Shown here piece by piece: positions 21,447 to 24,694 of a stretch of DNA of 64,000 nucleotides. Made by a program: the position numbers and the translations under genes. Numbering within the stretch: position 1 is the first letter of the stretch; each line of letters opens with the position of its first letter. This stretch comes from Naegleria gruberi (lineage: Eukaryota), in NCBI GenBank assembly GCA_000004985.1, contig GG738906.1; one strand, given 5' to 3'. A model generated the notes under the pieces. That model searched no databases and was not told the DNA's origin. It saw only the letters and a list, made by a program, of their open reading frames with translations.

Positions 21447-22997
21447 ATGAAAAGAACAATACTCTTTGCATTGGTGTTATGTATGATTCTTTGTATGTAC
21501 ACTGTTTCAGCAAACAATGCCGATGAATCAAAAGTTCCACCAGTAACAACACCTCCTCAAGAAGGTTTGGTTTCAACTACTCCTCCTACTCATCACGATG
21601 AAGAAAATGATGGGGAAACAACAACCATCACAGCATCTGTAACAGTCAAGGAGGAAGACAGTAATCAATCATCAAATGCTTCAACTTCCGCATCAAATAT
21701 TTCATCCCCTCAAAATAGTTCCTCTTCCCAAAAACAAGTTACTACTGGTAAACCAAAAAACAAGTCCAAGAGAACAATTCAAATAACTATTCCAAAAGAT
21801 TATGAAAAGTATCAACTTAAACCACGTGTCATTGGCGAAGATCAAAAGATTAGATTTTACAATGCACAAAATACTACATTTTATCAAAGAAAGTTGAAGA
21901 ATCCAATTCTTAAATTATGGATTTTGATTGTTGGTAGAAAGATGAAGAACAACTTGCCATACTTTACATACTCTGCAAGACGTTTCTTTGAAACTGCTTG
22001 GAGAAGAAATATTCAAGTGGAATTGATGGAAATTCAAAAGTTTGATTTACTCGTTTCACATGATGGTTCTAATTCTCTCATTTATGATGGTGAAGTTGTA
22101 CCAAGAGATGAATTCCCAGATGTTGTTTTACCTAGATTGGGTGCACAGTACGTTTTTTAATTATTTATTTAAATAACCTTGTTCAATAGTATTGATTATT
22201 GGGGATTGGCAGTAGTTAGACAATTTGAAAAGATGGATGTTTTGGTTCTTAATGGATTTGATTCCCTTGAAATGACTCGTGATAAGCTTCAAACATTACA
22301 GCAATTGGCTAAAGATCAAATTCCAATTCCAAAAACAATGATTGCTCGTTTCCCATTAGAAACCTCAATTATTTCACGTCATTTTACATATCCAATCATT
22401 TTAAAGAAATCTTCTGGTTCTCAAGGAAAAGGTGTAATGCTTATCGAAAGTGAAAACCAAATTAAGGGATTGGATGATATGTTGGATGTTTCCAAATCAA
22501 TGATCATTCAAGAGTTTATTCAAGCAAGCAAAGGAAGAGATATTCGTGTAATTGTTGTTGGTGGTAAGGCCATTGGTGCCATGATGAGAGTCGCTAAATC
22601 AGGATTTAAATCTAATTTCCATCAAGGTGGTTGGGTTAAACCAGTCAAACTTTCTAGTTCTTTGGAATGGTTGGCTATCACTGCTGCTCAAAGTGTTGAC
22701 TTGGACTTTGCTGGTGTTGATATTTTAATTGATAAGGATACTTACAAGATTTGTGAAATTAACTCTTCACCAGGTTTTGAAGGATTTGAGTTAGCAACCG
22801 GTCTCAATGTTCCTGAGCAATTTTTGAATTTTGTGGAATTAAGAACAAGTATTTGGAGAAAAATGGATAAGAAAAAGAAGAAGGGAAAGAATCCACCTGT
22901 AAGAATTCCAGTTGAAGCTGAACATGTTGTTGCCTCAAAGCCAACCAGCGATTCTCCAAAACACATTCAAGTTGGTTTGACAGGAAATCAACTTTAA
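21447..22997 (+). CDS. RimK-type ATP-grasp ligase with an N-terminal signal peptide and a Ser/Thr/Pro-rich stalk; join(21447..22147,22190..22997)
   Basis: Signal/anchor MKRTILFALVLCMILCMYTVSA followed by a mucin-like S/T/P region. RimK N-domain ...ILKLWILIVGRK...DGSNSLIYDGE and the ATP-grasp core YPIILKKSSGSQGKGVMLIE...ICEINSSPGFEGFELATG. A 42-nt GTACGT..ATAG intron (phase 2) joins the two ORF-track ORFs. Confidence 0.7.
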
Positions 22998-23025: not shown

Positions 23026-24694
23026 TTATTCTTTGGATAAAACCTGTTCCAATTGTTTTAGAATAGCAGCAATATCGTGCTTTTTTGAAATTTCTTTTGG
23101 TTTTTCTTTCTTGTGGGCAGATCTTTTTTCAACCTTTATCCTGTCCATATTACTCAAATAAACATCATAGAGAAAATCAAAATCCTTAACTGGTTTCATA
23201 CTGGAGAGAATTGTTTTTTGTTGTCTAATCTTTTTTCTTGTAATATATCCTCTGAATACTCGTTGAATCTCAGTTGCCTTATGATGTAGTTCATTAAGCT
23301 TGTTATGAATTTCTAAGTTTCCTTCCGTCAATTCAATCACTCTTTCTGTTGTTGGGGAAGTTTTTTTATAGGCACGTCTAAACGAATTGGATGATCCTGG
23401 ATTCGAGGATGGAGGAGGAACTGTTGGGAGAGATTTTGAAGTAGGTGGAATGTTACTATTATTTACATTTCTCTGAAAAGTTGCAGAACTTGACTGAGGT
23501 TTTCTATTTCTAGTATCGTTTAATTCTCCAGAAGCCCTCATTTCTTGGGCAGTTTTAAACTTTCGTATTGTACTGTCAGATGGAGTGGTTTTTTGTTTTT
23601 GCTTTACGTCTGGAGAAGAAAATGATTTGTTCATCCAATTCTTTGTCCTCACTTTTTCTAAAGAATCTTTAAACCGTTTGGTTGTGGGGTGATCTGCTCC
23701 AAGAGTTTCTAAGGAAAGACTGAATCCTTTTGAGTAATAATCCATTGCTGCAAGAGTTTGACTCAAATGTTCATATTCTACAGCAACATTATAAAAAGCA
23801 ACAGTTAAAGTTTCATTACAGGTTGCAATATTATTCTTAATATGATTTAGTTTTTTGTAAATTTCTAATTGTCGCAAAGCTTCCGTTCCATGCTCCAGAG
23901 CTTCTTCATGCCTTCCCATTTGAGATAAGACAGCACAAAAATTCAACTCCAAACTTGCATTAAAGTGCTTCTCATGTTTTTGAGCTTCTTGAAGAGATTC
24001 AAGTGACGATTCCAAATCACCACATCTGTAAAGGTTGGATTAAATGAATTTTCAATACTTACTCTTTGTAATAAACTGAACAGTTATTAAGTGTAGAAAC
24101 GAGTAACTTAACTCGCTTCTCATCTTCATCGTGGAAAACAATGCCTCCATATAAGTCTATTATGTTTTTAGCTTTTTGAAGGCAATTTTTGCATGATTGT
24201 TTGTTTTTTTGTTTAGTTAGAAGATCCATAGCCACTACGTTGCATTTAACGATGAATTTTTCGGTTGTTTTCCTTAATTTTTCAAGCTCATCCTCATTAG
24301 GGATACTCTTCATAGCAACATGAAGGTATTCTTCTAAAAATTGTAAACTCTTATTCATATTTCCTTTTTGTTTTTCCTTCTCATAGAGATCCAAAAGCAT
24401 GGAAAGGTCTTTTTTTCTTTGTTTGAACTGATCGCTTAATTTTGAGGATGAAGAATTTCTTGTTATTGGTTGGTTTTCCGTCGGTTGATATGAATCTTGA
24501 TTTATTCTTCCCTCCCTCAATATGTTATTTTGTTTATAATTTTCTTCAACTGTAGTCGTTATCGGATGATAGCCACAGTTTCCTAGGGTTTCTGACATTC
24601 TCGTATTAAATAATTGATGTTCCTCATTTATTGTATTTTGTTGGGTTATTCCAATGGGCGGGCAATAGAGAGAAGATGATCTCGAGTCCATCAT
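23026..24694 (-). CDS. TPR-repeat protein with an IQ calmodulin-binding motif; join(24694..24063,24025..23026)
   Basis: TPR-like helices (ALEHGTEALRQLEIYKKLNH...AAMDYYSKGFSLSLETLGADHPTT) and an IQ motif IQRVFRGYITRKKIRQQK. A 37-nt GTAAGT..ACAG intron (phase 2) joins the two ORF-track ORFs. Confidence 0.6.

Follow-up and report, generated by a model that had tools for sequence, protein, structure and literature searches.

RimK of bacteria is an S6:L-glutamate ligase and a poly-alpha-glutamate synthetase (Protein Data Bank (PDB) entries 4iwx, 5zct and 7qyr). It is a cytosolic enzyme of about 300 residues that acts on S6. Animals have RIMKLA and RIMKLB, the synthases of N-acetylaspartylglutamate and beta-citrylglutamate, which are likewise eukaryotic ATP-grasp ligases of the RimK family. 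To our knowledge, the ATP-grasp enzymes that ligate amino acids without the ribosome (RimK, RIMKLA/B, tubulin ligases, glutathione synthetase) are regarded as working in the cytosol, and no description of a signal-bearing RimK or of any lumenal ATP-grasp ligase was found in the literature. The gene described here lies on a 64,000-nucleotide (nt) stretch of Naegleria gruberi DNA (contig GG738906.1 of assembly GCA_000004985.1), called the window below, and encodes a RimK-type ligase that begins with a signal-like sequence. An original prediction, made from the letters of this DNA, had placed such a ligase at positions 21447-22997 and had directed it into the secretory pathway. The coordinates are exact. 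The catalytic domain of the encoded protein is probably extracytosolic, either within the secretory pathway or outside the cell; the comparisons described below give this reading a probability of roughly 0.65.

The N-terminus of the window protein has the layout of a signal sequence:

21447-21512, + strand: predicted signal sequence, residues 1-22, with n-region MKRT, h-region ILFALVLCMILCM and c-region YTVSA; putative cleavage between VSA and NN

The segment was assessed by heuristic rules based on hydropathy, flank charges and the residues at positions -3 and -1. The h-region has 13 residues. The putative cleavage site at 22/23 has Val at -3 and Ala at -1 and is followed by the acidic flank NNADES, the charge being +3 on the N-terminal flank and -1 on the C-terminal flank. 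A basic n-region, an h-region of 7-15 residues, a polar c-region and small residues at -3 and -1, the hallmarks of a signal peptide, are all found under these rules.

Hydropathy was measured as the maximal 15-residue Kyte-Doolittle value in the N-terminal part of each protein, and is 2.65 for the window protein. The first 120 homologues are distributed bimodally, 14 sequences having a value of at least 2.98 and the other 106 a value below 1.8. Thirteen of the 14 are non-redundant, P0039 being a damaged near-duplicate of P0013, and together with the window protein they make up the 14 signal-bearing proteins compared below. P0013 and P0039 are a near-identical signal-bearing pair from Acrasis kona. 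The scrambled stretches of P0039 and its substitutions in conserved motifs point to a pseudogene, to a duplicate created by mis-assembly or to an error in the gene model. A signal-type segment was found neither in the 106 other homologues, nor in 138 representatives from a library of 1.84 billion proteins, nor in 120 animal RIMKLA/B entries, about 370 RimK-family proteins in all, apart from four weak scores. None of the 138 representatives reaches 2.5, and they contain no further signal-bearing lineage. Of the animal proteins, 118 lie below 1.8 and two at 1.83 and 2.23, compared with at least 2.5 in the signal-bearing group.

The charges flanking the hydrophobic core have the same sense in all 14 signal-bearing proteins. 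The charge ranges from +2 to +4 on the N-terminal flank and from 0 to -5 over the 15 residues that follow the core. By the positive-inside and charge-difference rules, the N-terminus is thus predicted to be cytosolic and the C-terminus to be translocated, which supports, as a prediction, the earlier placement of the ligase in the lumen or outside the cell. A -3/-1 site directly follows the core in 13 of the 14. The hydrophobic cores of the family are 15-23 residues long, and the uncharged stretch in the window protein measures 19 residues. A type II Golgi enzyme would have a short cytosolic tail, an uncleaved transmembrane segment of about 16-22 residues and a Ser/Thr/Pro stalk before a lumenal catalytic domain. 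A stalk is present here, but so is a good -3/-1 site, and the segment fits a cleaved signal peptide and an uncleaved type II anchor alike. Cleavage after Ala22 is the favoured outcome for the window protein. Either arrangement predicts that the catalytic domain faces the lumen or the outside of the cell.

All signal-bearing sequences that carry a species label come from Heterolobosea, namely Naegleria lovaniensis, Willaertia magna, Acrasis kona (P0013 and P0022) and Percolomonas cosmopolitus. The Percolomonas member is a complete MMETSP transcript, showing that the combination of signal and ligase exists in mRNA. Signal-less paralogues coexist with the signal-bearing proteins: N. lovaniensis has one signal-bearing copy, P0001, alongside P0042 and P0054 without a signal, and Acrasis has the signal-less P0007 and P0012. 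The N. fowleri protein P0037 also lacks a signal. The suspicion that the hydrophobic segment might be an internal or a mitochondrial signal was not borne out. It stands at the extreme N-terminus in 14 of 14 proteins from at least four heterolobosean genera, and its basic n-region, hydrophobic core of 13-16 residues, V-S-A|N site and acidic flank are of the type that directs proteins to the endoplasmic reticulum (ER), in line with the secretory signal originally proposed.

The remainder of the protein contains a complete RimK ATP-grasp core:

21915-22853, + strand: RimK core (pre-ATP-grasp plus ATP-grasp domains), residues 157-455, matching PF18030, PF08443 and TIGR00768; the intron at 22148-22189 lies inside
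22719-22763, + strand: Mg2+/catalytic motif D411...E423-I-N425 (AGVDIL...CEINSSPG), corresponding to E. coli D248, E260 and N262 and kept in 14 of 14 signal-bearing proteins

The assignment to the RimK-type ATP-grasp ligases is confirmed by Pfam family PF08443 (RimK; 1e-46, residues 263-447, 159 bits against a cut-off of 21), by PF18030 (Rimk_N, the pre-ATP-grasp domain; 5e-14, 52.7 bits against 26.4) and by the NCBIfam model TIGR00768 (rimK_fam; 205.2 bits against 143.4). The narrower NCBIfam equivalogs are all missed: the S6:L-glutamate ligase model NF007764 scores 174 bits against a cut-off of 331, MptN 145 against 350, CofF 117 against 300 and LysX 146 against 276. The best sequence matches in the PDB are RimK crystal structures (E 2e-43). 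A structure was modelled with AlphaFold for the N. lovaniensis orthologue P0001, which is 72% identical to the window protein and served as its proxy. The model has a mean predicted local distance difference test score (pLDDT) of 83.8 and a predicted template-modelling score (pTM) of 0.78, and shows the three-domain ATP-grasp fold. A Foldseek search with it returned the RimK structures 5zk6, 7qys, 7qyr and 5zct as best matches, which superpose with a target-normalised template-modelling (TM) score of 0.9 and a root-mean-square deviation of 2.5-2.9 Å.

The roles of the residues that bind ATP and Mg and handle the acyl-phosphate were taken from the structures of Pseudomonas RimK (PMC10092738). 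They were mapped onto the window protein through the numbering of E. coli RimK, residues 12-289 of that sequence being covered by the alignment and residues 1-11 supplied separately. The equivalents, with the E. coli residue in brackets, are R230 (R64), K266 (K100), K306 (K141), E342 (E178), I344 (I180), R353 (R189), F373 (F210), N376 (N213), D411 (D248), E423 (E260) and N425 (N262). The window protein has kept every one of them, as have 14 of 14 signal-bearing members, contrary to what would be expected of a pseudo-enzyme. The protein is therefore very probably a catalytically competent ligase, as judged from its sequence. It resembles bacterial RimK in fold and domain order, and its nucleotide, Mg and acyl-phosphate residues are identical, so that the chemistry is presumably shared. 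It differs in having a signal sequence, spacers, an N-terminal extension of about 100 residues and a tail formed by a basic patch and the motif IPVEAEH. A further difference concerns the S7/R8 loop, which contacts poly-Glu in RimK (PMC10092738). The corresponding loop is longer and basic in the window protein (IVGRKMKNN) and in other signal-bearing members (VGGRGKR), which would fit an acidic acceptor.

The gene is assembled from two adjacent open reading frames (ORFs) on the + strand, 21447-22160 and 22179-22997, which become one frame once 42 nt are removed:

21447-22147, + strand: exon 1, codons 1-233 plus 2 nt of codon 234; the ORF starts with the ATG at 21447
22148-22189, + strand: intron of 42 nt, spliceosomal, phase 2, GTACGT...AATAG, within the codon of His234; its removal restores the frame to give LPRLGAHIDYWG
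22190-22997, + strand: exon 2, the remainder of codon 234 to codon 502, plus the TAA stop

The spliced coding sequence has 1509 nt and encodes 502 residues. The intron has a GC content of 19%, and its retention would lead to a stop after four codons. Across the splice site, where the junction peptide is LPRLGA-H-IDYWGLAVVRQ, the window segment LPRLGAHIDYWGLAVVRQFE can be aligned gap-free with E. coli RimK. The same junction peptide is found in the N. lovaniensis orthologue, whose gene (L001 4001-5725, PYSW02000027.1) is likewise interrupted, in the same phase, within the His codon of LGA-H-IDY, by an intron of about 100 nt rather than 42 nt. A second intron of that gene, between SGS and QGKG, is missing from the window gene. 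The junction peptide is also encoded by an intron-free ORF, P0002, on a metagenome contig. The shared intron and the gap-free alignment verify the 42-nt spliceosomal intron that had been proposed.

The closest relatives are heterolobosean, with 72% identity over 99% of the length to the N. lovaniensis protein, 68% identity to that of Willaertia magna, and several proteins of Acrasis kona among the top matches; Percolomonas also belongs to this set. These matches and the shared intron position show that the gene is a resident eukaryotic gene of the Naegleria type, as originally supposed. An in-frame TAG is situated 78 nt upstream of the ATG at 21447, and there is no earlier in-frame start. After M13 and M17 the next methionine is M166, inside the catalytic core, and no alternative start would thus yield a full-length cytosolic isoform. 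The ligase gene is present as a single copy in the window, which has a GC content of 33% and is gene-dense with long ORFs. The strand opposite to the gene holds only ORFs of at most 74 residues, none of them supported.

Between the signal and the core, and again beyond the core, the protein has segments that RimK lacks:

21513-21611, + strand: Ser/Thr/Pro-rich linker 1, residues 23-55, assigned by composition; the equivalent in the P0001 model has a pLDDT below 50 and is disordered
21612-21650, + strand: beta-strand GETTTITASVTVK, residues 56-68, which opens the protist-type N-terminal extension; in the P0001 model the strand spans residues 60-68 in a block with a pLDDT of 91
21651-21767, + strand: Ser/Asn/Thr-rich insertion, residues 69-107, with sequons NQS, NAS, NIS, NSS and NKS; confined to the Naegleria/Willaertia subclade
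21768-21914, + strand: protist-type pre-core extension, residues 108-156 (KRTIQITIPKDYEKYQLKPRVIG..IRFYNAQNTTFYQRKLKNP), including the sequon N142-T-T
22863-22928, + strand: C-terminal tail, residues 459-480, the basic patch KKKKKGK followed by IPVEAEHV, identified by alignment
22929-22994, + strand: C-terminal end, residues 481-502, with the motif IQVGLTGNQL common to the main signal-bearing clade; no KDEL/HDEL

Residues 23-109 are 43% Ser, Thr and Pro and contain five N-x-S/T sequons; the low-complexity parts of this stretch are disordered in the P0001 model, and in the alignment residues 69-105 are found only in the Naegleria/Willaertia subclade. The Ser/Thr/Pro richness of the mucin-like stalk of about 80 residues that had been predicted is thus real, but the stalk is not uniform, being broken by the conserved strand at residues 56-68. 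This strand, GETTTITASVTVK, aligns with an x-V-x-V-x-A-x-Y/W motif of signal-bearing and signal-less relatives. The extension at residues 108-156 (IQITIPKDYEKYQLKPRVIG...FYNAQNTTFYQRKLKNP) is conserved in all 59 extension-bearing sequences and missing from the other 62, which are mostly prokaryotic-type RimKs of about 300 residues. The tail, with its basic patch and IPVEAEH, is present in nearly all protist-type RimKs, with or without a signal, and in no prokaryotic RimK. It may serve as a pseudo-substrate, in oligomerisation or in regulation.

Trees were calculated from 289 columns of the core by neighbour joining only, with 100 bootstraps. The protist-type proteins form a clade apart from the sampled prokaryotic RimKs with 100% bootstrap support. 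Among the signal-bearing proteins the trees distinguish a main clade of 11, to which the window protein belongs, a second group of Percolomonas and P0018, and P0019 as a third. A single signal-bearing clade was recovered in 0 of 100 replicates, and the backbone bootstraps of 31-61% accommodate one gain of the signal as well as several.

Core identity to the window protein is 26-27% for animal RIMKLA/B, 34.5% for E. coli RimK and 45-50% for RimKs of about 298 residues from uncultivated prokaryotes. The latter, from Actinomycetota, Nanoarchaeota, Peregrinibacteria and others (P0056, P0064, P0073, P0098 and P0100), are the closest non-eukaryotic sequences. They are uncharacterised, have no N-terminal extension, tail or signal, and are likely, by sequence comparison, to represent the source lineage of the protist-type clade. 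Orthology to animal RIMKLA/B was considered and rejected: a split uniting protist and animal proteins appeared in 1 of 100 bootstraps, and the animal clade by itself has 100% support. The animal proteins have the motif CEANANVGF where the window protein has CEINSSPGF, and none of the 120 entries has a signal sequence. RIMKLA and RIMKLB, named together with RimK in the original prediction, were thus the wrong comparison, as the protist clade appears to derive separately from prokaryotic RimK.

Signal-less protist-type paralogues (P0007 and P0012 of Acrasis, P0037, P0042 and P0054 of Naegleria, P0031 and P0036 of plasmodiophorids) have a core identity of 50-62% to the window protein. They possess the same N-terminal extension, made of the strand and the motif IPKxYxKYxLKPxVIG...FY, and most have the C-terminal tail. 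They differ in having an acidic N-terminal region with no hydrophobic N-terminus and more cysteines, and in lacking the sequons at N142 and position 174.

The homologues stand in databases as hypothetical or misnamed proteins. UniRef calls P0001, P0007, P0012, P0013, P0022, P0037, P0042 and P0054 'N-acetylaspartylglutamate synthase', while relatives are entered by JGI as 'gamma-F420-2:alpha-L-glutamate ligase'. The evidence supports neither, because the CofF score is far under its cut-off and there is no orthology to RIMKLA/B. A transcriptome of N. fowleri lists a 'probable alpha-L-glutamate ligase' that is higher in trophozoites, an entry that does not identify the paralogue concerned. Two bacterial RimKs, P0230 and P0243, are fused to an N-terminal domain of about 140 residues with a D-T-G-A motif that is similar to RimB, the retropepsin-like partner reported for RimK of Pseudomonas; neither fusion protein is related to the window gene.

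If the signal operates as predicted, the catalytic domains of the signal-bearing proteins would be exposed to the lumen, and several properties of these domains are consistent with such exposure. Their cores have a mean of 1.6 cysteines compared with 4.3 in signal-less proteins (Mann-Whitney p 9e-7), the nearest signal-less relatives having 2-4. The one cysteine usually left in the aligned catalytic region is the invariant residue beside the catalytic Glu. The sequon N142-T-T is found in 8 of 14 signal-bearing proteins compared with 1 of 42 without a signal, a sequon at position 174 in 7 of 14 compared with 2 of 42, and 12 of the 14 have at least one of the two. The density of sequons in the N-terminal spacers is also higher (2.7 versus 1.6 per 100 residues, p 9e-4).

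There are also observations that weigh against a catalytic domain outside the cytosol. The cysteine and sequon statistics ignore shared ancestry, and the enrichment of sequons over the whole core is weak (2.7 versus 2.2 per protein, p 0.04); among the sequon data, weight can be given only to the density in the spacers and to the two sites specific to the clade. The catalytic Asn425 lies within an N-S-S sequon in every member, and glycosylation there would inactivate the enzyme. This objection is mitigated by the Pro at +3 (N-S-S-P), which disfavours glycosylation. The window protein has neither an ER-retention motif nor a disulfide-forming pair of cysteines. Its core, N-terminal extension and C-terminal tail are shared with cytosolic paralogues at 50-60% identity, which means that there has been no obvious re-tooling of the active site. 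Furthermore, all characterised RimK-family enzymes that we know of are cytosolic and require millimolar ATP and free glutamate. ATP is scarce outside cells, and a supply of ATP and glutamate in the ER/Golgi lumen of Naegleria is an assumption. ATP-using enzymes are, on the other hand, established within the ER/Golgi lumen.

Some of these observations would be accommodated if the hydrophobic N-terminus merely tethered the enzyme to an endomembrane, leaving the catalytic domain in the cytosol to modify substrates at the membrane surface. The known RimK-family enzymes are cytosolic, and the cytosol is rich in ATP and glutamate; the core and tail closely resemble those of the signal-less paralogues; the catalytic Asn sits in a sequon; and a hydrophobic core of 15-23 residues suffices for a stable transmembrane helix. 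Such a tether is nevertheless unlikely. It requires the N-terminus to be outside and the C-terminus inside, and hence an uncharged or acidic N-terminal flank and a basic C-terminal flank, the opposite of what is seen in 14 of 14 proteins. Moreover, the sequon-rich spacers, the cysteine-poor core and the clade-specific sequons would be left unexplained on the cytosolic side. A further proposal is that the segment is addressed to an organelle other than the ER, for instance a peroxisome or either of the mitochondrial membranes, outer or inner. Several organelles do have targeting signals that lie at the N-terminus and contain basic residues. However, an amphipathic Arg/Ser-rich presequence is absent, and the unbroken hydrophobic core with Kyte-Doolittle values of 2.65-3.5, the acidic flank and the -3/-1 site are of the ER type. 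In addition, the signal anchors of the mitochondrial outer membrane have basic C-terminal flanks, whereas the charge here is 0 to -5, making another destination highly improbable.

The scarcity of extracellular ATP and the lack of a retention signal would also suit a secreted protein that is no longer a ligase, either a binding protein or a pseudo-enzyme that has retained the fold. There is very little chance that this is correct, as the ATP, Mg and acyl-phosphate residues are invariant over three signal-bearing lineages and the 85% core identity between two Naegleria species indicates strong purifying selection. Least probable of all is an artefact of the gene model, with a wrong start or a missed upstream exon having created the N-terminus. 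The start in this species rests on genomic sequence rather than on transcripts, but the upstream in-frame stop leaves no other start, the orthologue P0001 aligns from residue 1 (99% coverage), the complete Percolomonas transcript has the same architecture, and independent gene calls agree in four genera and several metagenomes.

With the catalytic domain outside the cytosol as the preferred reading, a course of events can be proposed in which the chemistry is taken by analogy from the family. The N-terminal ER signal would lead to co-translational insertion, with the whole catalytic domain facing the lumenal or extracellular side. The signal would then either be cut after Ala22 or be retained as a type II anchor, giving the order tail, transmembrane segment, stalk and catalytic domain that is the layout of Golgi enzymes. 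The Ser/Thr/Pro/Asn-rich segments would be glycosylated spacers. ATP would phosphorylate a carboxylate of the substrate to give an acyl-phosphate, with the participation of K266, K306, E342, N376 and Mg2+ held by D411, E423 and N425. The incoming amino acid, most likely L-glutamate, would attack the acyl-phosphate through its alpha-amino group, perhaps in repeated rounds. This would produce either free poly-alpha-glutamate or a Glu tail, alpha-linked to a small molecule or protein that is lumenal or secreted; candidate acceptors are a protein C-terminus, a small acid and free Glu. It is therefore conceivable, at somewhat less than even odds, that this heterolobosean ligase adds alpha-linked Glu to secretory cargo or builds poly-alpha-glutamate in a secretory, vacuolar or cyst-wall compartment. 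The function that had originally been suggested, a modification of peptides outside the cell or in its wall, is speculative.

Two known arrangements offer partial parallels. As is generally known, type II enzymes of the Golgi have a short basic tail, a hydrophobic segment, a Ser/Thr/Pro stalk and a catalytic domain, matching the layout of the window protein with no relationship in sequence. Cnidarian nematocysts store a polyglutamate polymer within a post-Golgi organelle (PMC5566210). That polymer is gamma-linked and is associated with a different enzyme family, and lumenal polyglutamate in Naegleria is hypothetical.

The genes around the ligase are of other kinds. An intron-less gene at 18784-20451 (+ strand) encodes a CCT/TCP-1 chaperonin subunit of 555 residues (PF00118, 6e-149). 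It is followed at 20570-20842 (+ strand), 600 nt upstream of the ligase, by an ORF of 90 residues that has a signal-like hydrophobic start of its own and matches saposin-B region 1 (PF05184) with 25.3 bits against a cut-off of 25.2. This ORF may represent exon 1 of a secreted protein of the naegleriapore or saposin type. On the other side, a convergent gene at 23026-24015 (- strand) encodes a protein with TPR-like and IQ-motif features, whose Pfam matches are weak and under the cut-offs. The stop codon of this gene is only 28 nt from that of the ligase, and the 3' untranslated regions must thus overlap unless they are extremely short. Local gene order is not shared with N. lovaniensis, where the neighbours are TRAP-beta and a class I tRNA synthetase in place of the CCT and saposin-like genes. 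The gene context offers no functional clue.

What is new here is the predicted topology of a known enzyme family and its lineage-specific extensions, rather than a new kind of system. For the heterolobosean proteins, the misleading database name 'N-acetylaspartylglutamate synthase' is corrected. The presence of signal-bearing and signal-less paralogues in the same genomes constitutes a natural experiment in the relocation of an ATP-dependent enzyme. The genus includes the pathogen N. fowleri; if this species has the signal-bearing copy, a secreted enzyme without an orthologue in humans might be of practical interest there. A conserved and apparently active RimK with an ER signal predicts glutamylation-type chemistry in the secretory lumen of one eukaryotic phylum, which would mean that the lumen is supplied with both ATP and glutamate and contains a class of substrates for the enzyme. 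If the prediction is true, the ATP-grasp peptide-ligase superfamily would gain its first lumenal or secreted member, and the secretory lumen would be a new compartment for modifications of the polyglutamylation type.

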